The notes beneath the pieces are model-generated. The model was not told the origin of the DNA and made no database searches. It worked only from the letters and a program-made list of their open reading frames with translations. From contig CAYPPS010000001.1 of assembly GCA_964412685.1 (NCBI GenBank), forward strand, positions 11,835-65,649: a stretch of DNA of 53,815 nt. Direction: 5' to 3'. This stretch comes from an uncultured Gammaproteobacteria bacterium (GTDB lineage: Bacteria; Patescibacteriota; Microgenomatia; PFEM01; CAYPPS01). Every line of letters starts with the position of its first letter. Position 1 is the stretch's first letter. The position numbers were made by a program, and so were the translations under genes. Of the stretch, positions 22,022-53,815 are shown piece by piece.

Positions 22022-22094
22022 GGGCCGGTAGCTCAGCGGTTAGAGCACTGCTCTTATAAGGCAGGGGTCGCTGGTTCAAATCCAGCCCGGCCTA
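22022..22094 (+). tRNA. tRNA-Ile, anticodon TAT (UAU)
   Basis: Hand-folded cloverleaf. Acceptor GGGCCGG/CCGGCCT, D arm GCTC-AGCGGTTA-GAGC, anticodon arm CTGCT-CTTATAA-GGCAG, T arm GCTGG-TTCAAAT-CCAGC. CCA is not encoded. Confidence 0.85.
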
Positions 22095-22144
22095 CAAACA
22101 GAACGAACGCTTCAATGTTTGTGGGATAAGTCCAAAAAAGCTTT

Positions 22145-23008
22145 TTAGAGTTCTTCTAATTTTTCGCTTGAGGAAACTTTGTCTTTAATAAATTCCAAAT
22201 ATTTTTCGGTGGTGGAGAGTCTTTTGTGGCCAACAACTTGTTGGAGTCGTACCGGGGAAGTCCCAGCCATTAGTTGATGAGCAATAAAAGTATGTCTTAG
22301 ATCGTTGACGGTCACGTTTTTGACTCCTGCTAGCCTAAAGTAACGATCAATGGCGGAACGAATGTTTCTGACATTCATGGCTCGGTGATTTTTAGTGACA
22401 AAAATAGTTTGTGCTTTTGATTTTGGCCGATGATCTAAATAGCGCTCCAGCGCCTTTTTGGCTGAAGAATTTAAGGGAACTTTTCTTAACGGTTGAGCCT
22501 CACAAGCTTGAATCGTGATATCTTTTTCGTCAATGTTTTCAAACTCTAATCTGGCCAATTCACCGATACGCATTCCGGTTTGAAGTAGAATTTCAATCAC
22601 GGCTGCCATTCGAGGATCATTCCTAACCGTGTCTCTCAAAGCGCGGTATTCCATCTTGGTTAGAATTCGAGGAGGATTGGTGGTAAATTTTGGATGGGCA
22701 ACGCTAATAGCAGGATCGTTCTCAATCGTCTTGATGCTGACTAAATAACGGAAGAAAGCTTTGATGGAATTAAGCTTTCTGGAAACTGACTTGGGAGTAT
22801 ATTTTTTTTCTTCCAACAAAAATTTTTTGAAATCATTGATTAAGTCCGAGGTAACCCGATCAACCAAATCGACATTTTTTTCCGCCAAAAAACTGGCAAA
22901 CTGAGAGAGATCGTTGCCATATGCTAGGATAGTGTAAGAAGAACGCTTATCTTTTTTTAAATTCTCGACAAACTTTTCTCGACCGGTGCTTAAATTTAAA
23001 GGTGACAT
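22145..23008 (-). CDS. tyrosine-type site-specific recombinase/integrase (XerC/D family)
   Basis: 287 aa with an N-terminal SAM-like domain. Catalytic contexts GMRIGELARL (Arg), LRHTFIAHQL (HxxR) and GHKRLSTTEKY (Tyr). Confidence 0.88.
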   Translation of the reverse strand: MSPLNLSTGREKFVENLKKDKRSSYTILAYGNDLSQFASFLAEKNVDLVDRVTSDLINDFKKFLLEEKKYTPKSVSRKLNSIKAFFRYLVSIKTIENDPAISVAHPKFTTNPPRILTKMEYRALRDTVRNDPRMAAVIEILLQTGMRIGELARLEFENIDEKDITIQACEAQPLRKVPLNSSAKKALERYLDHRPKSKAQTIFVTKNHRAMNVRNIRSAIDRYFRLAGVKNVTVNDLRHTFIAHQLMAGTSPVRLQQVVGHKRLSTTEKYLEFIKDKVSSSEKLEEL

Positions 23009-23016
23009 TCTAGCTT

Positions 23017-23025
23017 ATAATAACA
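23017..23025 (-). promoter_or_regulatory. extended -10 element (TGtTATTAT) 8 nt upstream of the recombinase ATG
   Basis: The minus strand reads agTGtTATTATaagctagaATG, with no SD. Confidence 0.4.
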
Positions 23026-23076
23026 CTATCCAGGATGAGAGTCAACCAATTTTCGTGCCTATTTTAGGCCTAAATT

Positions 23077-23421
23077 ATGAGGAAAAAATTTCTTAAAATT
23101 CTGGCTTTTTTTATCGGGGTATGTCTTATAATTAGCTTATCTCGGAGTATCTACCAGCTCCTTCAGGCAGGACAGCAATTAGGCCAAACTGAAGAAAAGC
23201 TGGCGAAACTGGAGAGAGACAGAGAAGAGCTTTTTGAGCAAAAAACTTATCAAGAAACTCGATTTTTCATCGAAAAAGAAGCGAGAGAAAAACTGAATTT
23301 AAGTTATCCCGGCGAAGCAGTTGTCATTCTTCCGGACGAAAAAGAATTGATTAAACAAGTTCAGGACTTTCAGGCCAAAACACTTCCCAATTACCAACGT
23401 TGGCTCAATCTTTTCATCTAA
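23077..23421 (+). CDS. septum formation initiator (FtsB/DivIC-like)
   Basis: 114 aa. N-terminal TM helix, coiled-coil, and the conserved tail EKEAREKLNLSYPGEAVVIL. Confidence 0.7.
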   Translation: MRKKFLKILAFFIGVCLIISLSRSIYQLLQAGQQLGQTEEKLAKLERDREELFEQKTYQETRFFIEKEAREKLNLSYPGEAVVILPDEKELIKQVQDFQAKTLPNYQRWLNLFI

Positions 23422-23427
23422 ATTTTC

Positions 23428-23456
23428 TTGTCATTTGAAGCTAGTTTTGCTAGAAT
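23428..23456 (+). promoter_or_regulatory. promoter of the tRNA cluster
   Basis: TTGTCA, 17 nt, then TAGAAT preceded by TGc (extended -10). It ends 16 nt before the first tRNA. Confidence 0.6.
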
Positions 23457-23472
23457 GATTCTTGGCTTGATA

Positions 23473-23542
23473 TGCGGGGTAGTGTACGGCTGCACGCGAG
23501 GCTCATAATCTTGCAGACTAGGTTCAACTCCTAGCCCCGCAA
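23473..23542 (+). tRNA. tRNA with CAT anticodon (elongator Met or Ile2-type), short D loop
   Basis: Acceptor TGCGGGG/CCCCGCA, U8, D arm GTGT-ACGGCT-GCAC, anticodon arm CGAGG-CTCATAA-TCTTG, T arm CTAGG-TTCAACT-CCTAG. The boundaries are less certain than for the other tRNAs. Confidence 0.6.
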
Positions 23543-23553
23543 CTAAATTTTAA

Positions 23554-23627
23554 GGCAGGGTAGCTCAGTCGGTTAGAGCGTTGGATTCATAAACCAAAGG
23601 TCGTGGGTTCAACTCCCACCCCTGCTA
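23554..23627 (+). tRNA. tRNA with CAT anticodon (Met or Ile2-type)
   Basis: Acceptor GGCAGGG/CCCTGCT, D arm GCTC-AGTCGGTTA-GAGC, anticodon loop TTCATAA, T arm GTGGG-TTCAACT-CCCAC. Confidence 0.8.
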
Positions 23628-23642
23628 CTTTTGTAAAGTTTT

Positions 23643-23713
23643 AGGGGCGTGGTTAAATGGTATAACAGCAGTCTCCAAAACTGCTATTGGGGGTTCGATT
23701 CCCTCCGCCCCTG
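23643..23713 (+). tRNA. tRNA-Trp, anticodon CCA
   Basis: Acceptor AGGGGCG/CGCCCCT, anticodon arm CAGCA-GTCTCCAAAAC-TGCTA with loop CTCCAAA, T loop GGTTCGATTCC. Confidence 0.85.
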
Positions 23714-23751: not shown

Positions 23752-24318
23752 ATGGAAAATAGCGAATTTGAAATATCTGTTAACCTTAAGGGTTTTCCTT
23801 TAAGATTTAAAACAACTCATGACCTTTTCTCTTACGGGGAAATAGATGGGGGAACAAAACTTCTCATAGATAATTTAAAAATGTCTGATGGCTTTACTTG
23901 TCTTGATTTGGGTTGTGGGTATGGTGCTATTGGAATCACAATGGCTAAGCTGAATCCAAAAAGCACGGTCTATTTGGTAGACAAAGATTTGGTCGCAATT
24001 GAGTATGCAAGAAAAAACTGTGAACTAAACGGTCTCTCGAATTGCAGGGTTATTCTCAGTAATGGATTTAGCCATATTAAAGACGTTAAATTTGACGTTG
24101 TTGTTTCCAATTTGCCGACTCACGTTTCAAAAGAAACAAGAACACAGTTTTTCAGAGACGCTCAGAAACAACTCAATCAAGATGGAAAAATATATGTTGT
24201 TACCGTAAACAAAGTAAGACCATATATTCAGAAGGTTTTCCAAGAGGTTTTTGGCAACTACTCCAAGGTTGCGTACAGTAAAACCCACACTGTCTCTTCA
24301 ACACAAAAAAACGTCTAG
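23752..24318 (+). CDS. class I SAM-dependent methyltransferase (RsmC/MTS-domain-like)
   Basis: 188 aa with motif I LDLGCGYGAIG and motif IV-like VVSNLPTH. Confidence 0.75.
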   Translation: MENSEFEISVNLKGFPLRFKTTHDLFSYGEIDGGTKLLIDNLKMSDGFTCLDLGCGYGAIGITMAKLNPKSTVYLVDKDLVAIEYARKNCELNGLSNCRVILSNGFSHIKDVKFDVVVSNLPTHVSKETRTQFFRDAQKQLNQDGKIYVVTVNKVRPYIQKVFQEVFGNYSKVAYSKTHTVSSTQKNV

Positions 24319-24349
24319 TGAGCAAGGGCCTTAGGGCTTTTCCGGTAGA

Positions 24350-24390
24350 AAGTTCTGACATCTTTCACTAGTCCCTGCATTTTAGCCTCA
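24350..24390 (+). repeat. repeat copy R1 (AAGTTCTGACATCTTTCACTAGTCCCTGCATTTTAGCCTCA)
   Basis: Direct repeat. Its 3' half matches the tRNA-Trp end and flank, and the whole length matches R2. Confidence 0.8.
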
Positions 24391-24407
24391 AACAATTATA
24401 TCTGACT

Positions 24408-24452
24408 GTCAAAAACTGAAGAAAATAGCAATTTATACCAGTTACTATTTTC
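24408..24452 (-). terminator. candidate intrinsic terminator of the 98-aa ORF
   Basis: The minus strand reads GAAAATAG, a 16-nt loop, CTATTTTC, then TTCAGTTTTT. The stem is AU-rich. The 5' arm begins in the stop codon. Confidence 0.4.
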
Positions 24453-24747
24453 AGTCTCTACCTGATTTTTTATCCATTTCTGGCCCAATTATTTGATATG
24501 CACCACAAGAATCACCTTTGTAATACTGACAGCGGCGGCCTTTACTTTCATATATTATCCTCAACCCACATTTACTGTGGGGCATTCTTACTGGACATAT
24601 AATTGCCTTCTTGAATGTTGGCGTTAATTCTTCTTCAGAAGGAATTATTTGTGCCTCTATTATTGGTCCACCTTCAATTGGTCGGCAATGTAATAATTTA
24701 CCGTTTAATAATAAATCTGGTAATCTTTCCGTGTTCATGAAAAGCAT
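24451..24747 (-). CDS. hypothetical Cys-rich protein (98 aa)
   Basis: ORF with Cys pairs (CPVRMPHSKC ... CQYYKGDSC), suggesting a metal-binding knuckle. No family recognised. Confidence 0.5.
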   Translation of the reverse strand: MLFMNTERLPDLLLNGKLLHCRPIEGGPIIEAQIIPSEEELTPTFKKAIICPVRMPHSKCGLRIIYESKGRRCQYYKGDSCGAYQIIGPEMDKKSGRD

Positions 24748-24808
24748 TATATCTCTTGTGAAGTATTTACAAAAGCATGCTGGTAATCTCGGTAATGTTC
24801 CTGATAAT

Positions 24809-24849
24809 AAGTTCCAACAATGTTCACTAGTCCCTGCAATTTAGCTTTA
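24809..24849 (+). repeat. repeat copy R2 (AAGTTCCAACAATGTTCACTAGTCCCTGCAATTTAGCTTTA)
   Basis: Direct repeat, about 33/41 identical to R1 and about 27/30 identical to R3 over the core. Confidence 0.8.
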
Positions 24850-25027
24850 AAAATGAGTCAAAGCTGATTGATAGTTAAACAAGAAGGCTTGTCGTTTTTT
24901 GAAATTACGAATCTCGTATCTGTTTAAGAACCTTTTTCTTCTACGCAAATAATGAGGCTAAAAGAGAACTATCTCCTGTTCCGTTCAGAAATCCAGTTTC
25001 CCTGTCATGCGCAAAGTTCGAACTAGT

Positions 25028-25582
25028 TCAAGCTAGGGCAACTAGTATCTTCTTTTGCCAATCTCGGTAGGGGTACCTATCTTCACTATTTTTCTTTGCT
25101 AATTGGTCATTTATTTCTATCATTTTCTTAAATCCCTCCAGCGTCGGAGTCCAAATGGGCTGACCTCGCAAGTTACCTAATGGATTCTCTGGGGCAAGCG
25201 AGGAAATATTTTCAATTATATTTAGTTTCCGAAGCAGCTTCTCGGCTTGTTCTATAGTTCCCAACTCTAATCTAAAATCAGGCGAAAGAGACGGATTTTT
25301 AAAAACAACTTTGCCCACTGCGCCTACTTTCCGTGGCGTGTGTTGATACCCATGCTTTTTGATTATCCGAATAAACTTATCTTTTGACTCTTCTTTTATA
25401 AACAAATCAAAATCGCCATGGGCTCTGGTTAATGTTCCATAAAGAGCATCAAGTCCATAACCACCAGTAACCCAGGCTCTAATTCCAAGCCGATGACATT
25501 CTGCAAGAATCACCAATAAAGAATCTAGTTGCCTTAATTGTTCGTCAGAAGGAAGGTAGCTAAAGGCCTTAGATTTTCTCAT
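25028..25582 (-). CDS. nucleotidyltransferase-fold protein (ANT(2'')/Lnu-like)
   Basis: 184 aa. The pol-beta NTase signature is VTGGYGLDALYG...HGDFDLFI (GG...D-x-D). Confidence 0.6.
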   Translation of the reverse strand: MRKSKAFSYLPSDEQLRQLDSLLVILAECHRLGIRAWVTGGYGLDALYGTLTRAHGDFDLFIKEESKDKFIRIIKKHGYQHTPRKVGAVGKVVFKNPSLSPDFRLELGTIEQAEKLLRKLNIIENISSLAPENPLGNLRGQPIWTPTLEGFKKMIEINDQLAKKNSEDRYPYRDWQKKILVALA

Positions 25583-25589
25583 TAACCTA

Positions 25590-25598
25590 ATTCTACCA
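25590..25598 (-). promoter_or_regulatory. extended -10 element (TGgTAGAAT) 7 nt upstream of the NTase ATG
   Basis: The minus strand reads tTGgTAGAATtaggttaATG, with no SD. Confidence 0.45.
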
Positions 25599-25686
25599 AA
25601 GTACCTCTTTTAATAAAATTATCTGGAAAAAGCAGGCCGAAAAGAATAATTCAGAGTTACCAAACCGTCAGAGCTTTCCCGAAACC

Positions 25687-25720
25687 AGGTTCCAACAAAG
25701 TTTACTAGCCCCTGCAAAGA
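25687..25720 (+). repeat. repeat copy R3 (AGGTTCCAACAAAGTTTACTAGCCCCTGCAAAGA)
   Basis: The last direct copy. Similarity ends right after CCCCTGCAA. Confidence 0.75.
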
Positions 25721-25819
25721 CAAATAAAAAGAAGCTCTCAACAAAACTTACCAGCTCTCGCACATATACATATGTAGGAGTTTGGGTTTGCGAGGAAGGA
25801 AATATTAAGTGTGAAGGAG

Positions 25820-25856
25820 ATTGCACACCCGGTGTGCAATGTGTTTTTGCTATAAT
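25820..25856 (+). promoter_or_regulatory. trpS promoter region: 9-bp inverted repeat plus extended -10
   Basis: ATTGCACAC-CCG-GTGTGCAAT (25820-25840), followed by GTGTTTT and TGcTATAAT (25848-25856). The ATG is 11 nt downstream. Confidence 0.5.
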
Positions 25857-25867
25857 CTCAATTAAGG

Positions 25868-26854
25868 ATGGGTAACAAAAAAAGAGTTTTTTCTGGCAGT
25901 CGGCCCACCGGCAGACTTCACCTCGGTAATTACCTAGGTGGAATTAAAGGCTACATTGCTCTTCAGGAGAGAGGGGATTTGGATTGTATTTACGGAGTCG
26001 TGGATCTCCATGCGATTACCACTCCCTACAATCCCAAAGAATTGGCTAAAAATACTTATGAAGTGGTGTTAGATTATCTTGGTGCCGGTCTAGATCCCAA
26101 AAAATGTCACTTAATGATCCAATCTCAAATTCCCGAACACGTTGAACTGGCTTACTTGCTCGGGACGATTTATCCGGTTTCTCGAATTGAACAACTGCCG
26201 ACTTACAAAGATAAGAAAAAAGAGAATCCCAATTATATTAATGTTGGCCTTTTTTATTACCCGATTTTGATGGCGGCTGATATTTTGATTTATCAAGCTA
26301 ATTTGGTTCCGGTTGGTCGAGATCAATTGCCCCATATCGAACTGGCTCGAGAAGTAGCGCGTAAGTTTAACCTTACTTTTAAAAAGGTTTTTGTTGAACC
26401 CAAAGTTTTTCTTTCTGAAGGTGAGTCGGTTCCCAGTTTGACGGGAACAGGCAAAATGAGCAAGACAATCAAAGACAGTTTCATCGAATTAACCGATGAT
26501 TTGAAAACAATTGAAGCCAAGTTGGCCAAGGCACCGACTGATTCAGGAAAAGGAAGCCAGATTCCTTCTCGGAGTGGGGTGGCTAATTTACTTAAATTAG
26601 TGGCGCTTTTTGAGGGTGAATCAAAAAAGAAAGAATACGAAAAAGATTATTTATCTTCGGGAATTAAATATGCCCAATTGAAGAAAGATTTGGCCTTGAG
26701 TATTTTTGAGGAACTAAAACCAATCCAGAAAAGAAGAGCCGACTTTGAAAAACATCCTCAGCAGGTTGAGAAAATTTTGGAAGACGGGCGAAAATATTGC
26801 TCTGAAATTGCCCAAAAAACCTTGGCAGAAGCAAAACAAGCCATGGGTTTTTAG
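25868..26854 (+). CDS. trpS: tryptophan--tRNA ligase
   Basis: 328 aa. HIGH-type motif GRLHLGNYLG and KMSKS motif GKMSKT. Confidence 0.93.
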   Translation: MGNKKRVFSGSRPTGRLHLGNYLGGIKGYIALQERGDLDCIYGVVDLHAITTPYNPKELAKNTYEVVLDYLGAGLDPKKCHLMIQSQIPEHVELAYLLGTIYPVSRIEQLPTYKDKKKENPNYINVGLFYYPILMAADILIYQANLVPVGRDQLPHIELAREVARKFNLTFKKVFVEPKVFLSEGESVPSLTGTGKMSKTIKDSFIELTDDLKTIEAKLAKAPTDSGKGSQIPSRSGVANLLKLVALFEGESKKKEYEKDYLSSGIKYAQLKKDLALSIFEELKPIQKRRADFEKHPQQVEKILEDGRKYCSEIAQKTLAEAKQAMGF

Positions 26855-48668: not shown

Positions 48669-48716
48669 AGGGTGTGGCCACGAGCTACAAATGTGACCAC
48701 ACCCTGTTTCAATTTT
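48669..48716 (+). terminator. intrinsic terminator downstream of the BMP gene
   Basis: AGGGTGTGGcCAC, an 11-nt loop, GTGaCCACACCCT, then GTTTCAATTTT. Confidence 0.55.
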
Positions 48717-48755
48717 CCCCTTGTTTCGTTTTCACAAATCCTTTATGGTAATGTC

Positions 48756-49070
48756 ATGGTTGATTTGAGTAAAGACGATTTCCAGTTGGAAGTTTTGGAT
48801 GAAACAACACCGGTTTTGGTTGATTTTTGGGCGCCTTGGTGTGGGCCTTGCCAGGCAGTGACGCCCGTTTTAAACGAATTGACGAAGGAGTATGGCAATA
48901 AGGTAAAAATTGTCAAAGTTAATGTTGATGAAGGAGCCACTTTGGCCCAGAAATATAATGTTGTCAGTATTCCCACCTTAGTAGTTTTTAAAGACGGTAA
49001 AGAAATCGAACGCCAGATCGGCTTTAACGGCAAAGAGGCTTTGGTGAAAATAATTGACAAAGCGCTCTAG
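48756..49070 (+). CDS. trxA: thioredoxin
   Basis: 104 aa from the ATG at 48756, with the WCGPC active site. The track's GTG start at 48672 lies inside the terminator hairpin. Confidence 0.92.
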   Translation: MVDLSKDDFQLEVLDETTPVLVDFWAPWCGPCQAVTPVLNELTKEYGNKVKIVKVNVDEGATLAQKYNVVSIPTLVVFKDGKEIERQIGFNGKEALVKIIDKAL

Positions 49071-49076
49071 TTTTAC

Positions 49077-49997
49077 ATGTTGGATTTAATTATTATTGGC
49101 GCTGGCCCGGCGGGGTTGGCGGCCTCAATTTACGCTTCTCGGTTCAATTTAAATCATCTTGTTATTGGTCTTCAGTTTGGAGGAACGATTGTTCTGGCCC
49201 ATAAAGTGGACAATTATCCTGGTTTACCCGGTTTGACGGGTCAACAACTGGCAAAAAAGTTTCTTGATCATGCCGAAAAATTGGGAGGAAAAATTATTGC
49301 TCAGGAGGTGATGGAAATTGCGAAGCAGAACCACACTTTTTCAGTCATCACCACTAAGGGAGAGAAGTACGAAAGCAAAGCTTTGATTGTTGCCACGGGG
49401 ACGGAGCGGAAAAAACTGGATATTCCCGGTGAAAAGGAATTGATCGGCAAAGGGGTTTCTTATTGCTCGACTTGTGACGCTCCTTTTTATAAAGATAAAA
49501 CCGTGGTTGTCGTTGGTGGGGCAAATGCGGCCTGTTCCGGGGCGATTCATCTAGCCGAATTTGCCAGTAAAATTTATTTAGTTTATCGAAAAAGTGATTT
49601 GAGAGCGGAACCTTTTTGGGTTAAAGAGGTTAAGAAAAATCCCAGGATTGAAGTAATTTATAAACAAAACTTAACTAAGATTTTAGATGTAGACCAAGGA
49701 AAAGTAACTGCGGTTGAACTGGATCAGAAATATGAAGGAAAAAAATCCTTGGAATGTCAGGGAGTTTTTATCGAAATTGGTGGCGTTCCCCTGACTGGAT
49801 TGGTTCGGGAAATCGGGGTTGAGATAGAATCAGATGGCCACATTAAAACAAACCGGGAAATGGAAACTAATATTAAAGGGGTTTATTGTGTCGGAGACAT
49901 CAATTCGACCTTTAGGGAATTTAAACAAGTAGTCAGCGCCGTCGCTGAAGGTGCCATCGCCGCTCAAGGAGTTTACCAGAGCTTAAATAAGAAATAG
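49077..49997 (+). CDS. trxB: thioredoxin-disulfide reductase
   Basis: 306 aa. FAD motif GAGPAGLAASIY, redox CSTC, and a second dinucleotide fold VVVVGGANAA. Confidence 0.9.
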   Translation: MLDLIIIGAGPAGLAASIYASRFNLNHLVIGLQFGGTIVLAHKVDNYPGLPGLTGQQLAKKFLDHAEKLGGKIIAQEVMEIAKQNHTFSVITTKGEKYESKALIVATGTERKKLDIPGEKELIGKGVSYCSTCDAPFYKDKTVVVVGGANAACSGAIHLAEFASKIYLVYRKSDLRAEPFWVKEVKKNPRIEVIYKQNLTKILDVDQGKVTAVELDQKYEGKKSLECQGVFIEIGGVPLTGLVREIGVEIESDGHIKTNREMETNIKGVYCVGDINSTFREFKQVVSAVAEGAIAAQGVYQSLNKK

Positions 49998-50003
49998 TTT
50001 GGA

Positions 50004-50032
50004 TTGACGGAAATTGATATAAATGCTATCTT
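50004..50032 (+). promoter_or_regulatory. promoter placed 7 nt upstream of the ferredoxin ATG
   Basis: TTGACG, 17 nt, then TATCTT preceded by TGc. Then ttaaatc and the ATG at 50040, with no SD. Confidence 0.55.
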
Positions 50033-50039
50033 TTAAATC

Positions 50040-50222
50040 ATGAAAGTTGTTGTAGATAAAACTAAGTGTATCGGTTGTGGAACTTGTGTGGCGATTGCTC
50101 CACAAAGTTTTAAACTTGAGGGTGCAACAGTAGTTGCCCTTGAGCCTTTAGGAGACTCGGAAGAGCAGGTTAAAGAGGCAGTTGATAGTTGTCCAGTTGA
50201 TGCTTTAACGGTTGAAGAATAA
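50040..50222 (+). CDS. small single-cluster 4Fe-4S ferredoxin
   Basis: 60 aa with CIGCGTC ... CP cluster ligands. Confidence 0.8.
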   Translation: MKVVVDKTKCIGCGTCVAIAPQSFKLEGATVVALEPLGDSEEQVKEAVDSCPVDALTVEE

Positions 50223-50813
50223 ATGAATAAAGAAAAAACCAATGGTTTCGCTTCACCCATTTTAATCCTTCTTTTGGTAGTGGCTTCCTTTTTGATGGGA
50301 ATGATTTGGACCCAATCTCGCCAAAACGGAAACGACGACAATCAGCCAATCGGCCAGCAAGAAGAAGCGGTTCTTGAACAGGAGCAAGAAGAACAAGTTT
50401 TAGGGGAAAGCGTGGCCGTTCTTGGTAATTTCAAAGCTTTAGAAGAGACAGAGGTTTGCCTAGAAGACGACAAGCCACTTGTTTATTATTTTGGCCGTTC
50501 TTCTTGTCCACATTGTGCTTGGCAACATCCAGTTATCTCTTCGGCAGCAGAAAAATTTGAGGACTTGATTGTTTTCCATGACAACATGGATAAAGCTGGG
50601 GTGGATCAAGAAATTTACGAGAAATATAGTTTACTGAATCAAGGAGCGATTCCTTTTATTGTCATTGGTTGTCAGTATTGGCAATTGGGGAGCGGAGAGG
50701 CCTTTGGTGAGGAACAGGAAATCGAACATATTACTGCCTTGATTTGCAAAGTGACTAACAATGAACCGGAAGAAGTTTGTGCCCCCTTACAAGAAACCAT
50801 CGACTCTATTTAA
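50223..50813 (+). CDS. membrane-anchored thioredoxin-fold thiol-disulfide oxidoreductase
   Basis: 196 aa with an N-terminal TM helix and the redox motif SCPHC. Starts 1 nt after the ferredoxin stop. Confidence 0.65.
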   Translation: MNKEKTNGFASPILILLLVVASFLMGMIWTQSRQNGNDDNQPIGQQEEAVLEQEQEEQVLGESVAVLGNFKALEETEVCLEDDKPLVYYFGRSSCPHCAWQHPVISSAAEKFEDLIVFHDNMDKAGVDQEIYEKYSLLNQGAIPFIVIGCQYWQLGSGEAFGEEQEIEHITALICKVTNNEPEEVCAPLQETIDSI

Positions 50814-50844
50814 AACTACTTGTTTGCCGATTTGCCGTTCCTGA

Positions 50845-50853
50845 TGCTATAAT
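50845..50853 (+). promoter_or_regulatory. extended -10 element (TGcTATAAT) 6 nt upstream of the ATG at 50860
   Basis: The sequence reads gaTGcTATAATctcctcATG. A possible -35 TTGCCG lies 18 nt upstream. Confidence 0.5.
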
Positions 50854-50859
50854 CTCCTC

Positions 50860-51513
50860 ATGAACATTTTCCAACAAGTGATTGCTCAGGCGATTGAAAA
50901 TGGAGTTTCTGAGCAAACAGTCATTTTACTTTTGCTTTTACCTCTAGTTACTAGCTTGGTGGCAGCTGCCAGATATATTATCGGTTTCCGTGGTTTCGGT
51001 ATTTTCATTCCTTCGGCTCTTGCGGCGGCTCTTTATGTGGCCGGTGCTCAGGCAGGAGTAATTGTTTTTTTGGTGGTTTTGTTTTCGGCTACTTTTGCTC
51101 GTTGGTTGCTGAGAAAATTCAAACTAAACATTCATTATTTGGCCAGAATGGCCATTTTGCTTTGGCTTGTTTCTTCGGTAACTTTGGTTTTGATTCTTGC
51201 TTCTCCTTGGTTGGGGATTGGTCAATTAGTAGTTATCTCTATTTTCCCGATTTTAATTTTGGTTCTTTTGGCAGAAGAGTTTATTGGAGTTCAAACCGGC
51301 AAATCTTGGCGAGAAGCGGCCAGGTTGATGATGGAGACAATCATTATTGCTTTCTTGGGTTATTTAGTTTTTCAAAGTAGTTTTTTACAGTTTGCCGCTT
51401 TAAAATACCCTCATTGGTTTATTGTTGCCCCGGTGATTTTGAATTTGATTGTTGGTCGGTTCACCGGACTAAGAATTTTTGAATACTACCGATTTCGTAA
51501 AATATTAAAGTAA
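50860..51513 (+). CDS. 7-TM membrane protein (7TM_transglut-like module)
   Basis: 217 aa with ~7 hydrophobic segments. IGFRGFGIFIPSALAAAL resembles the 7TM domain usually fused to an inactive transglutaminase. Confidence 0.6.
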   Translation: MNIFQQVIAQAIENGVSEQTVILLLLLPLVTSLVAAARYIIGFRGFGIFIPSALAAALYVAGAQAGVIVFLVVLFSATFARWLLRKFKLNIHYLARMAILLWLVSSVTLVLILASPWLGIGQLVVISIFPILILVLLAEEFIGVQTGKSWREAARLMMETIIIAFLGYLVFQSSFLQFAALKYPHWFIVAPVILNLIVGRFTGLRIFEYYRFRKILK

Positions 51514-51528
51514 CTTTCCTTTGAGAAA

Positions 51529-52839
51529 ATGTTTCCTAAATCTAAACAGGTATTGGGGGTTAATGCCAGAAACCGAGTTTTCTTACGTTTCAACACCAAA
51601 AAAGGGAGGAAAGTAGCCGATTCTAAATTGCTAACTAAAAGAAAGTTAGCCAAGGTTAATTTACCCACGCCAAAACTAATTAAGGTTTTTAAAAATTCTC
51701 AGGAAGTTCAGAATTTCGATTGGCTGTCTCTTCCTGAGAATTTTGTCTTGAAACCAGTTTCCGGCTTTGGTGGTGAGGGAATTGTTGTTGTCAGAAAAAA
51801 AGCTAAATTTGCCGGTGAATGGCGATTGATGGACAATTCTATCATCACTTTGAGTGAATTAAGACAACAATCTTTGGATATCCTTGCTGGTCGTTATAGT
51901 CTCCACAATCTTCCGGATAAAGCAATGATTGAAGAGCGAATCAAAATTTCCAAAACCTTTCGTCATTATGCTCATCAGGGAACCCCAGACATAAGAATCA
52001 TAGTCTTTAATCGAGTTCCAGTTATGGCTATGTTGCGTTTGCCGACGATTGTTTCCAAAGGTAAGGCCAACTTACATCAAGGAGCTTTGGGTTTAGGCAT
52101 AGATTTAGCAACCGGGATTACAACTCACGCGATTACTACTTTTGGAGTTTTGGATGCTCGAAACTTAAGATATATTCCGGGGACAAAAAGAAAAGTTAAT
52201 GGGCTTAAGATTCCTTATTGGAATTCTTTTTTGACTTTGGCGGTTAAAGCTCAGGAAGCGGTTCCGGAGTTAGGTTTTTTGGGAGTCGATTTATTTTTAG
52301 ATAAAGAAAGAGGACCAATAATCGTGGAACTTAATGCTCGACCTGGTCTCTGGGCACAACAGGCAAACATGGTGCCCTTGAAGAAACGACTAGAAAGAGT
52401 TGAAGGTTTGGATGTTCGAGATGCTGATCATGGAGTGAGAATTGCTCGGGCTCTTTTTGCCGCTCGTTTTGCCGATCGAATAATGATTAAAGAAGGCCTT
52501 CAGATTCTTAGAGTTTGGGAAAAGATAAGAGTTCTTTCTTTTGACAGAAAGCAAAAGCAAGAAATAAAAGCGAAAATAGATACTGGCGCTTGGCGAACCT
52601 CGATTGATAAAGATTTTGCCGATCAAATGGGATTGTTGACGCCGGAAAATATTCTTTGGAAAAAAGTTTATCGAAGTGGTTTCGGAAAAGACGAAAGAGA
52701 AGCCATTGGGCTTACTTTTTATTTAGGGGGGAGAAAAATAAAAACGGTTGCCAATGTGGCGGAGAGAAGCGAACTAAGGGCGTCGATGATCATTGGTAGA
52801 AGAGATTTGGTTGGTTTTTTGATAAGACCGAGAGGTTGA
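51529..52839 (+). CDS. ATP-grasp amidoligase (alpha-L-glutamate ligase-related clade) fused to a C-terminal retropepsin-like peptidase domain
   Basis: 436 aa. ATP-grasp features: VLGVNARNRVFL, KPVSGFGGEGIVV and IVELNARPGL. The C-terminal ~115 aa carry AKIDTGAWRTS and IIGRRDLVGFLIRP. Confidence 0.75.
   Translation: MFPKSKQVLGVNARNRVFLRFNTKKGRKVADSKLLTKRKLAKVNLPTPKLIKVFKNSQEVQNFDWLSLPENFVLKPVSGFGGEGIVVVRKKAKFAGEWRLMDNSIITLSELRQQSLDILAGRYSLHNLPDKAMIEERIKISKTFRHYAHQGTPDIRIIVFNRVPVMAMLRLPTIVSKGKANLHQGALGLGIDLATGITTHAITTFGVLDARNLRYIPGTKRKVNGLKIPYWNSFLTLAVKAQEAVPELGFLGVDLFLDKERGPIIVELNARPGLWAQQANMVPLKKRLERVEGLDVRDADHGVRIARALFAARFADRIMIKEGLQILRVWEKIRVLSFDRKQKQEIKAKIDTGAWRTSIDKDFADQMGLLTPENILWKKVYRSGFGKDEREAIGLTFYLGGRKIKTVANVAERSELRASMIIGRRDLVGFLIRPRG
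52492..52839 (+). other. retropepsin-like (RimB/PF05618-type) aspartic peptidase domain
   Basis: D-T-G-A catalytic signature with D351 at 52579-52581, plus the C-terminal GRRDL motif typical of this family. Confidence 0.65.
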
Positions 52840-52840
52840 G

Positions 52841-53737
52841 ATGAAAAAAGTTTTATTAGTAGTCACCAAAAAAGGCCAAAAGAAGAAGCATTTAACTCGA
52901 CGGCTCAACGTCTTGTCGGCTGGCAAGATCGAGTTTAAATTAGTGAGACTTTCTGATTTTACGATTGAATTTAACGGTAAAAAAGTTGAGGTAAGGGTCG
53001 AAGGCGAATCCGTTTCTAATTTTGACTTGGTTTATTTTCGCCGAGTTGGAGATATGATGTCTATTGCTGGCTCTTTGGCAATTTGTTTTGACGCCTTAGG
53101 GTTGGAATATCTCGATGCATTTTTCAGCCACATGGGTCCAGCTCGGAACAAGCTTTCTGCTTTGCTCAAACTTTCTTTGTCTGGGCTACCAGTGCCGCCA
53201 ACCTTTTTTTGTTTTAAAGAGCACGTTTTGGAAAATGTTGATTACTTATCGACTCGGTTTGGTTTTCCCCTGATTGCCAAAGAGTTAGCTTCTCAAAGAG
53301 GTCGGGGAGTTTTTTTAGTTAAGAATAAAAGTGATTTTGATTTTTTGAACGAAGCGACGGAGGACGATCAGTTTCTTTTTCAAAAGTTCTATCCCAATGA
53401 TGAAGAGTTTCGGCTGTTGGTTTTAGGGGATAAAGTGGGAGTTTATGAGAGAAAAGTGCGAACGGATGAAAATGAATTTCGTAACAATGTTGCCCTGGGG
53501 GCGAAAGAGGAGTTTTTAGATTTGAACCAGATACCAGGGGCGTTAAAGCAAATTGCAGTCAAGGCGGCTGATGTTTTAGGTTATCAAATTTCCGGCGTGG
53601 ATGTGTTGGTTGACAAAACCACTGGAAAATATTGGTTATTGGAAGCCAATCGGGGTCCGGGACTAACTTACGATGAAAAGGTTTCTCCGGAGATGGTCAA
53701 ATTGGCTGAATATTTTGCCAAGAAGCTAGGAGAATGA
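52841..53737 (+). CDS. RimK-family ATP-grasp ligase
   Basis: 298 aa. FPLIAKELASQRGRGVFLV, EEFRLLVLGDKV, EFRNNVALGA and GVDVLVDKTTGKYWLLEANRGPG. Starts 2 nt after the previous stop. Confidence 0.8.
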   Translation: MKKVLLVVTKKGQKKKHLTRRLNVLSAGKIEFKLVRLSDFTIEFNGKKVEVRVEGESVSNFDLVYFRRVGDMMSIAGSLAICFDALGLEYLDAFFSHMGPARNKLSALLKLSLSGLPVPPTFFCFKEHVLENVDYLSTRFGFPLIAKELASQRGRGVFLVKNKSDFDFLNEATEDDQFLFQKFYPNDEEFRLLVLGDKVGVYERKVRTDENEFRNNVALGAKEEFLDLNQIPGALKQIAVKAADVLGYQISGVDVLVDKTTGKYWLLEANRGPGLTYDEKVSPEMVKLAEYFAKKLGE

Positions 53738-53740
53738 AAA

Positions 53741-53815
53741 ATGCGTAAAGTGGCCATGAGTTTTTCTCGGCCTTTTGAGGGAGACGAACCCCTAGCTCAC
53801 ATTGGGTTTAAACTG
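53741..53815 (+). CDS. 5' end of an ORF running off the window (MRKVAMSFSRPFEGDEPLAHIGFKL...)
   Basis: The ATG has AGGAGA 8 nt upstream and the frame stays open to the window edge. Function unknown. Confidence 0.4.
   Translation, partial: MRKVAMSFSRPFEGDEPLAHIGFKL

Follow-up and report, generated by a model that had tools for sequence, protein, structure and literature searches.

A ligase-retropepsin fusion protein and its seven-transmembrane partner: a probable Patescibacteria form of the Rlo system

What would a bacterium with a reduced genome build, and then cut, with an ATP-grasp ligase that is joined in one chain to a retropepsin-type protease and encoded directly behind a small membrane protein? 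This question is raised by four closely packed open reading frames (ORFs) on the + strand (50860-53815) at the end of a 53,815-nucleotide (nt) stretch of contig CAYPPS010000001.1, which we call the window. They encode a 217-amino-acid (aa) seven-transmembrane (7TM) protein (50860..51513, +), a 436-aa ligase::retropepsin fusion (51529..52839, +), a second ligase of 298 aa (52841..53737, +), and the start of a third ligase. A preliminary description, made from the sequence without database searches, had proposed a membrane-associated system that builds and trims a poly-glutamate-like chain. This proposal is partly supported by our analysis, and its core is strengthened; the protease belongs to a family that has been shown by experiment to cleave polyglutamate. 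We consider it probable that the locus represents Rlo as found in Patescibacteria, a system that builds and trims an acidic chain resembling poly-alpha-glutamate while docked at the membrane.

The rloABC operon of Pseudomonas aeruginosa, also present in other Gammaproteobacteria, encodes a secreted polyglutamate-cleaving retropepsin (RloA), a protein that combines an inactive transglutaminase with a 7TM module (RloB), and an ATP-grasp enzyme (RloC) (Lormand et al., mBio 2025, PMC12239564). Loss of all three RloA paralogues leads to hypo-osmotic lethality and to defects in biofilm, antibiotic (beta-lactam) sensitivity, and cell shape, and loss of rloB or rloC suppresses the defects of the protease-null mutant (PMC12239564). 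Because of this rescue, RloB and RloC are expected to make something that must be cleaved. The same study places 96% of RloB hits in Proteobacteria (PMC12239564). For direct comparison, we used a canonical rloA-rloB-rloC operon on a Legionella plasmid, whose RloB-type protein has both domains.

The fusion protein and its membrane partner

Is the C-terminal part of the fusion protein a retropepsin? The domain in question, of RloA/RimB type (PF05618), covers aa 327-436 and, with the stop codon, 52507..52839 (+), as delimited by a domain-only model, a profile, and conservation; its active-site DTG, which contains D351, lies at 52579-52587 (+). An AlphaFold 2 model of the isolated domain had a mean predicted local distance difference test (pLDDT) score of 89, and all 48 Foldseek matches of this model at E values up to 1e-3 were retropepsins. 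The first six were RloA2 (9g59), RloA (9g58), and Legionella Lpg0085 (2pma), followed by ApRick, the foamy-virus and HIV proteases, and Ddi1. Both RloA-family entries, 9G58 and 9G59, come from the work of Lormand et al. (PMC12239564). A profile of the domain recovered the same entries from the PDB (9g59 at E = 1.2e-5), and the hhalign alignment of the protease profile with the Legionella RloA-type protein (E = 3.2e-6) ran through the DTGA, R-P-V, and GR motifs.

Close homologues of the fusion protein retained D[TS]G without exception (120 of 120); D351, R390, and R413 were invariant, and K349 was conserved in 80-95%. On the basis of the alignment with RloA2 and the identical 23-residue spacing of the two arginines, K349, D351, R390, and R413 appear to correspond to RloA K46, D48, R114, and R137. 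In RloA, polyglutamate cleavage suffered most from mutation of R114 and R137, which also abolished complementation (PMC12239564). As judged from the models, a retropepsin fold of the fusion C-terminus, which had been proposed from the motifs AKIDTGAWRTS and IIGRRDL, is confirmed.

The ligase domain occupies aa 1-312 (51529..52464, +) and is an ATP-grasp domain of RloC/TIGR02291 type. It matched PF14397 (E = 2.3e-60), and TIGR02291 was by far its best model (E = 3.3e-76, model positions 9-307 of 317). It shares 40% identity over 275 aa with the Legionella RloC-type protein (E = 1e-65), which itself clears the TIGR02291 cutoff at 436 bits. By these comparisons, and with its own TIGR02291 score of 256 bits under the cutoff of 314, the fusion ligase appears to be a divergent member of the RloC/TIGR02291 clade. 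Residues K75 (ATP binding) and D254 and E267-x-N269 (Mg binding) were invariant in the fusion family.

Modeled by AlphaFold with 46 homologues (pLDDT of 82), the 436-aa chain consisted of two domains and a low-confidence linker; the linker (aa 313-326; 52465..52506, +) has pLDDT values below 50 and is amphipathic, not transmembrane. The whole-chain fold search found solely ATP-grasp enzymes among the 50 matches listed, including the poly-alpha-L-glutamate synthetase RimK (5zct; the best match for the ligase domain), ArgX/LysX, and cyanophycin synthetase. As a single query against PDB sequences, the 436-aa protein had no match; relatives of its retropepsin domain in the PDB required the domain profile and the domain-only model. 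Since the protein has no signal peptide and no transmembrane segment between ligase and protease, its retropepsin is expected to be cytoplasmic. Joined to an ATP-dependent ligase, the protease would lie inside the cell, on the opposite side from RloA, and this predicted placement, which the preliminary description did not note, is in our view the most informative feature of the module.

The 217-aa membrane protein matched PF14402 (E = 2.8e-20) and, at positions 311-507 only, the RloB model NF052267 (E = 8.2e-12); its alignment with the Legionella RloB-type protein (E = 8e-10) covers residues 309-505 of the latter. In a hidden Markov model (HMM) search, it had no match to the transglutaminase domain PF14400, and a PKD domain and a signal segment were likewise absent from it. 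It therefore looks like the RloB membrane module in minimal form, without the outer transglutaminase domain, as the preliminary description had surmised when it likened the protein to the membrane module that is fused to an inactive transglutaminase in Proteobacteria. The remaining domain assignments of that description also proved correct by HMM searches (PF14402, TIGR02291/PF14397, and PF08443, with PF05618 weak and below its cutoff), and the ligase motifs that it quoted, VLGVNARN and IVELNARPGL, are present. By hydropathy and the positive-inside rule, the protein has seven predicted helices, an outer N-terminus, and a basic C-terminal tail that faces the cytoplasm. This orientation agrees with the signal peptide and PKD domain that precede the first helix in longer homologues, and also with the attachment of a ligase to the 7TM C-terminus in the fusions described below. 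The module has an invariant G-x-R-x-x-E motif in the tail and an invariant intramembrane Glu; its profile found no relative in the PDB at E values up to 5.

The window and Rlo therefore encode the same three homologous modules together, namely, an RloA-type retropepsin with DTG and the polyglutamate-binding Arg, a 7TM protein, and an RloC-type ligase. They differ in several respects. The protease of the window is attached to the C-terminus of the ligase and is without signal peptide and cytoplasmic, whereas RloA is secreted; the 7TM protein does not have the inactive transglutaminase domain PF14400; the order is B followed by C::A rather than A-B-C; two RimK-family ligases are added; and the host is a Patescibacterium.

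Distribution and natural fusions of the three modules

How widespread is this arrangement? The fusion family comprises 120 clusters at 61-91% identity, all of about 430 aa, and at least 591 fusion loci/genomes were found among species-representative genomes. These loci span Woesebacteria, Shapirobacteria, Beckwithbacteria, Dojkabacteria (WS6), Moranbacteria, Falkowbacteria, Parcubacteria, and Saccharibacteria. Fusion-bearing relatives include complete chromosomes of 0.8-1.08 Mb, in line with the reduced genome assumed earlier. The fusion and the minimal 7TM protein had been called unusual; they are instead the standard form in Patescibacteria, a mostly uncultured group in which a 7TM protein without transglutaminase is the rule. 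So broad an occurrence among organisms with minimal gene sets (at least 591 species-level genomes) suggests that the module serves an important purpose in the envelope or under stress throughout the superphylum. Many metagenome-assembled genome records with Patescibacteria-type loci (L007, L009, L011, and others) are titled "uncultured Gammaproteobacteria" or "uncultured Pseudomonadales", one of them being a complete 0.81-Mb chromosome (OZ246419.1), and a few contigs are labeled Bathyarchaeia, Woesearchaeota, or Marinimicrobia. Such titles probably reflect wrong labels or misbinning; we did not accept them as taxonomy because the 0.81-Mb chromosome is complete and the loci match named Patescibacteria.

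Neighborhoods were counted in 80 fetched loci, 77 of which have upstream sequence, and ORFs were clustered around 81 loci. The 7TM gene lay directly upstream of the fusion gene in all 77 testable loci (median spacing, about 10 nt), so that the co-conservation expected of a functional module is borne out in relatives. Apart from the 7TM gene, no neighbor was universal in the clustering. Ribosomal protein genes (L7/L12, L10, and L1) were common neighbors of the module, probably through synteny.

Could the module instead belong to a small-peptide pathway? With its several ligases, protease, and membrane protein, the operon does resemble a peptide natural-product cluster, and there are weak matches to graspetide maturase and NAGGN synthetase models. 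The product matured by the ligases and the protease would then be an osmolyte or short peptide (for example, a graspetide or a di- or tripeptide), in the manner of ribosomally synthesized and post-translationally modified peptides, and the 7TM protein would export it. The weak matches are far below their cutoffs, though, and no conserved small ORF occurs near the module: the small-ORF clusters around the 81 loci were only antisense or out-of-frame shadows of conserved genes. The two-gene core is also found across the whole superphylum with housekeeping neighbors, unlike accessory natural-product clusters. We regard such a pathway as highly improbable.

In about 12 loci, the fusion gene is directly followed by a gene for a MATCAP-family carboxypeptidase (PF08014), a family related to TIGR02421 ("QEGLA"); the bacterial MATCAP-type proteins match TIGR02421 only below its cutoff, and there is no MATCAP gene in the window. 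Some genomes of this MATCAP-bearing group (L057, L059, L064, L068, L073, L080, and L083) have a transglutaminase-core protein of 616-673 aa about 4.5 kb upstream of the fusion gene, which in L073 is fused to UvrC in the ORF call. We rejected it as a part of the module: it lies between uvrA-like and uvrC genes, an instance of housekeeping synteny.

What other combinations of the modules occur? The retropepsin domain alone, searched exhaustively against 1.84 billion representatives, yielded 315 relatives, 95 of them at E values up to 1e-10. Among these combinations are retropepsin::7TM proteins behind a signal or anchor (P0192, P0203, and P0248), a signal followed by two tandem retropepsins::7TM (P0153), a single 657-aa chain of anchor plus retropepsin::7TM::ligase (P0260), and proteins of ~800 aa that run ligase::retropepsin::MATCAP carboxypeptidase. 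Stand-alone PF14397 ligase genes directly follow retropepsin::7TM genes, and one retropepsin::7TM lineage has a Glu/Leu/Phe/Val dehydrogenase-family gene directly downstream of the module. An intact 584-aa ORF for a 7TM::RloC-type ligase is present on the Halobacterium sp. DL1 plasmid CP007061 (L089:5167-6921). Such Rosetta-stone fusions indicate a single physical unit made up of all three modules, in which the ligase is attached to the C-terminal, cytoplasmic end of the 7TM module. Judged from these architectures, the protease would be outside the membrane in some lineages, as in Pseudomonas, and inside in the type found in the window, and the tandem duplication of the retropepsin in P0153 and P0138 suggests that a paired active site is required.

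Two of these relatives deserve separate mention. The archaeal Halobacterium ORF lies in an unannotated stretch, adjoins transposase genes, and has no retropepsin nearby. A 539-aa protein (P0207) joins a class-I lysyl-tRNA synthetase domain (PF01921, E = 2.3e-84) to a C-terminal retropepsin of the same clade (residues ~398-505, AKIDTGAF...IIGRRDL) and may be a real fusion or a gene-calling chimera.

Is the retropepsin perhaps regulatory, processing or controlling the ligase or the 7TM protein (for example, by autoprocessing) or only binding the acidic chain? Retropepsins classically autoprocess polyproteins, RimB stimulates RimK nonproteolytically, and the side of the membrane on which the protease lies varies across lineages, all of which would fit. 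The linker of the fusion protein, on the other hand, offers no acidic run as a cleavage site, the strict conservation of DTG and of the substrate-binding arginines argues for catalysis on an acidic substrate, and the tandem pseudo-dimeric proteases (P0153 and P0138) suggest selection for an active dimeric site. A purely regulatory role is quite unlikely by this evidence.

A further reading is one membrane-coupled machine, in which an acidic chain would be made in the cytoplasm, threaded through the 7TM module, and released by the protease at either face, hence the attachment of the protease to the outer 7TM end or to the cytoplasmic ligase. We hold this more specific form of the proposal to be doubtful.

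What the module may build and cut

Which parts of the locus belong to the core? The preliminary description spoke of paired ATP-grasp enzymes; there are three ligases, and the two RimK-like ones are variable. The second ligase, which adjoins the fusion gene as described, is indeed of RimK type and has an N-terminal pre-ATP-grasp domain (PF08443, E = 2.1e-20; TIGR00768, E = 5.7e-31). The third, of which the window holds the start (ATG at 53741; the first 25 of 319 codons, 53741..53815, +, truncated where the window stops), is an ATP-grasp enzyme of divergent, RimK/GshB-like type (TIGR00768, E = 5.8e-18; PF08443, E = 4.3e-11). Its 25 codons are identical to the start of L002:10936-11895, the complete gene on an identical contig, so that the fourth ORF noted earlier as running off the window is the beginning of this 319-aa protein. 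All three ligases fall under the TIGR00768 subfamily cutoff of 143 bits (108 bits for the second), and the K and D...E-x-N catalytic motifs are intact in all three. RimK-like ligases occurred in 43 of the 81 loci, in 0-3 copies per locus, the count of 43 being that of homologues of the second ligase. These data suggest that the two RimK-family ligases are cotranscribed variable accessories rather than core parts.

The presence of a RimK-family ligase raises the question of whether the locus is a Rim-type system, in which the ligases would polyglutamylate ribosomal protein S6 (RpsF), the fused retropepsin would remove the tail, and the 7TM protein would be a mere neighbor. RimB, the cytoplasmic paralogue of RloA, trims polyglutamate tails and stimulates polyglutamate synthesis by RimK, and RimBK of Desulfotalea psychrophila is a proteolytically active RimB::RimK hybrid (Little et al., JBC 2025, PMC11957791). 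Like these, the window would have a cytoplasmic retropepsin that accompanies, or is joined to, an ATP-grasp alpha-L-glutamate ligase for building and trimming polyglutamate, and genes for ribosomal proteins (L7/L12, L10, and L1) and mnmA are frequent neighbors. The protease of RimBK, in contrast, is N-terminal and joined to a RimK-type ligase, the reverse of the order in the window, where it is C-terminal to an RloC-type ligase; the Rim system has no 7TM partner and targets S6. With the RimK equivalog model PRK10446 (cutoff of 331 bits), the fusion protein scored 12.9 bits, the second ligase 49.9 bits, and the third ligase 17.3 bits; the fused ligase belongs with RloC/TIGR02291, not RimK. In addition, the 7TM gene is adjacent in 77 of 77 loci and is fused to ligase or protease in other lineages, and RimK-like genes are absent from about half of the loci. 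A system directed at S6 is very unlikely on these grounds. A query with the Escherichia coli S6 sequence found no rpsF match in the window.

The evidence fits better with a Patescibacteria form of Rlo, for which we propose the following course. The conserved basic tail that the 7TM protein exposes to the cytoplasm would serve as the docking site of the ligase, which would consume ATP to elongate an acidic chain with alpha linkages, either unattached or on an acceptor's C-terminus. This chain is most likely poly-alpha-L-glutamate, in view of the protease residues, the specificity published for RloA and RimB, and the resemblance of the ligase fold to RimK. Two fusion chains may pair their retropepsin domains into an active site and cut the acidic chain on the cytoplasmic side, which would limit its length or else release oligomers and regenerate the primer, as RimB does for RimK. 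The 7TM protein, with its invariant intramembrane Glu, could pass the product across the membrane or couple synthesis to outside conditions, and the accessory ligases could prime or diversify the chain.

The MATCAP genes may be read in the same light. In the eukaryotic tubulin tyrosination cycle, the ATP-grasp ligase TTL adds a residue and the carboxypeptidase MATCAP (PF08014) removes it. Some Patescibacteria likewise fuse the ligase::retropepsin protein to a MATCAP-family peptidase or let one follow it, and by analogy, this pairing of an ATP-grasp ligase with MATCAP suggests residue addition and removal on an acidic C-terminal tail. In Photobacterium damselae at low salinity, the QEGLA/MATCAP-family gene RS17025 was upregulated 27.5-fold, the adjacent ATP-grasp gene RS17020 ("GshB") 38-fold, and rimK 52-fold (PMC10308900), a hint that pairs of a ligase and a MATCAP-type peptidase respond to hypo-osmotic conditions.

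What speaks against this explanation? Several observations do. Both domains of the fusion protein fall short of curated cutoffs: the protease reaches 21.8 of 27 bits on PF05618 (E = 1.8e-4), although relatives of the fusion clear it (e.g., L060 at 37 bits), and the ligase reaches 256 of 314 bits on TIGR02291. For RloC-type ligases, the assignment of glutamate comes from protease specificity and similarity to RimK. The protease is cytoplasmic here and periplasmic in Pseudomonas and in the retropepsin::7TM relatives, and the Pseudomonas model cannot be transferred unchanged. Pairing of retropepsin domains within the fusion is assumed, and a transport role is speculative because no relative of the 7TM module could be detected among known structures. 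Finally, among ORFs of at least 70 aa or of 20-69 aa clustered around the 81 loci, there was no conserved acceptor, carrier, or precursor.

The Pfam name of PF14397, "sugar-transfer associated ATP-grasp", weighs on the same side, since it points to surface polysaccharide chemistry. Might the module therefore ligate peptides in the cell envelope, adding amino acids other than glutamate to a surface polymer or a peptidoglycan-related precursor, with the protease maturing a protein component? Weak matches to Ddl and pseudomurein ligase models, the cell-shape and beta-lactam phenotypes of Pseudomonas rlo mutants, and the PKD domains at the outer side of the 7TM partner in Parcubacteria and Saccharibacteria would be consistent with this. 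The Ddl scores, however, are 21-31 bits against a cutoff of 243, no conserved glycosyltransferase or Mur genes lie next to the module in the 81 loci, the polyglutamate-binding arginines of the protease are invariant, and the MATCAP linkage points to editing of an acidic C-terminal tail. We consider envelope ligation unlikely and continue to favor synthesis and trimming of an acidic chain.

How much of this is new? The kind of system is already known from the 2025 work on Rlo and Rim and from earlier computational linkage, and nothing is overturned. The amidoligase survey of Iyer, Abhiman, Burroughs, and Aravind (Mol Biosyst 2009) is said to have been the first to connect these ATP-grasp ligases by computation with peptidases and 7TM-transglutaminase proteins; it is reportedly the source of the Pfam families PF14397, PF14400, and PF14402 and may mention some of these architectures. 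The preliminary description had known such linkage from computational surveys only, which no longer holds, since rloABC was characterized genetically and structurally in 2025 (PMC12239564) and the RimBK hybrid has been described (PMC11957791); it was right that no physiological product has been established. In the searchable literature, we found no Patescibacteria version of Rlo, no link of MATCAP/DUF1704/QEGLA to ATP-grasp enzymes, and no public source naming these exact proteins. In that literature, which does not cover the 2009 survey, we likewise found no description of the ligase::retropepsin architecture, its near-universal pairing with a transglutaminase-less 7TM protein across Patescibacteria, the association with MATCAP, or the switch in the side of the protease.

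The natural fusions constrain what RloB and RloC make and RloA cuts in vivo. They place the ligase at the cytoplasmic end of the 7TM module and imply that ligase and protease act on the same molecule; this molecule must be reachable from both membrane faces, or else cutting can precede or follow export, and in some lineages, the polypeptide also carries a C-terminal carboxypeptidase. In Pseudomonas, osmotic tolerance, biofilm formation, cell shape, and sensitivity to beta-lactams are all influenced by Rlo, and the ligase::protease plus 7TM pair of Patescibacteria provides a compact two-gene experimental handle on its product. If the membrane-coupled machine considered above were real, ultra-small bacteria would have a previously unrecognized, superphylum-wide pathway to an osmoprotective or surface polymer, and the product of Rlo would be identified.

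Promoter, gene order, and neighbors

Are the genes of the module expressed together? Successive ORFs for the 7TM protein, the fusion, the second ligase, and the third ligase are separated by gaps of 15, 1, and 3 nt (the second of these had been given as 2 nt), and Shine-Dalgarno-like purine-rich stretches precede the second and third start codons; both features fit translational coupling. ORF calls and a promoter scan bear out the compact same-strand arrangement behind a TGcTATAAT element. The promoter-like site (50824..50853, +) consists of a -35 sequence, TTGCCG, at 50824-29, an 18-nt spacer, and the extended -10 sequence TGcTATAAT at 50845-53; by consensus match only, it is the best sigma-70-like site in 50000-53815 (10 of 12 positions plus the TG). 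Since the site ends 6 nt before the ATG of the 7TM gene, the mRNA would be leaderless or nearly so.

On the identical metagenome contigs L001-L006, the gene order continues past the window with the complete third ligase gene and then mnmA, encoding a tRNA 2-thiouridine synthase (L002:11877-13016), which shares 19 nt with the end of the third ligase gene. The mnmA gene recurs downstream of the module in at least 18 fetched loci, even in those without accessory ligases, and its adjacency could reflect functional linkage or merely conserved Patescibacteria synteny. In 10 loci, a 118-aa PF04020 four-transmembrane "holin-like" protein is encoded immediately upstream of the 7TM gene.

Upstream of the module in the window are genes for a thioredoxin (48672-49070) and a thioredoxin reductase (49077-49997), followed by a region (50040-50813) in which the stop codon of a 60-aa ferredoxin-like ORF (50040-50222) overlaps the start of a gene for a 196-aa membrane-anchored thioredoxin-like protein with a CPHC motif. 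The ferredoxin-like ORF ends in ...DALTVEE, and its Glu-Glu C-terminus recalls the acceptors of RimK and LysX. We rejected it as an acceptor of a Glu tail: the ferredoxin and its thioredoxin-like neighbor are kept only on near-identical contigs.

Elsewhere in the window, Rfam models identified four tRNA genes at 22022-23713, three of them clustered at 23473-23713. Nearly all long ORFs of the inspected part of the window are on the + strand, and the GC skew is positive in every 2-kb interval except 24001-26000. A dip in AT skew at 40-44 kb coincides with membrane-transporter genes (Na/Ca exchanger and MFS) and is unremarkable.

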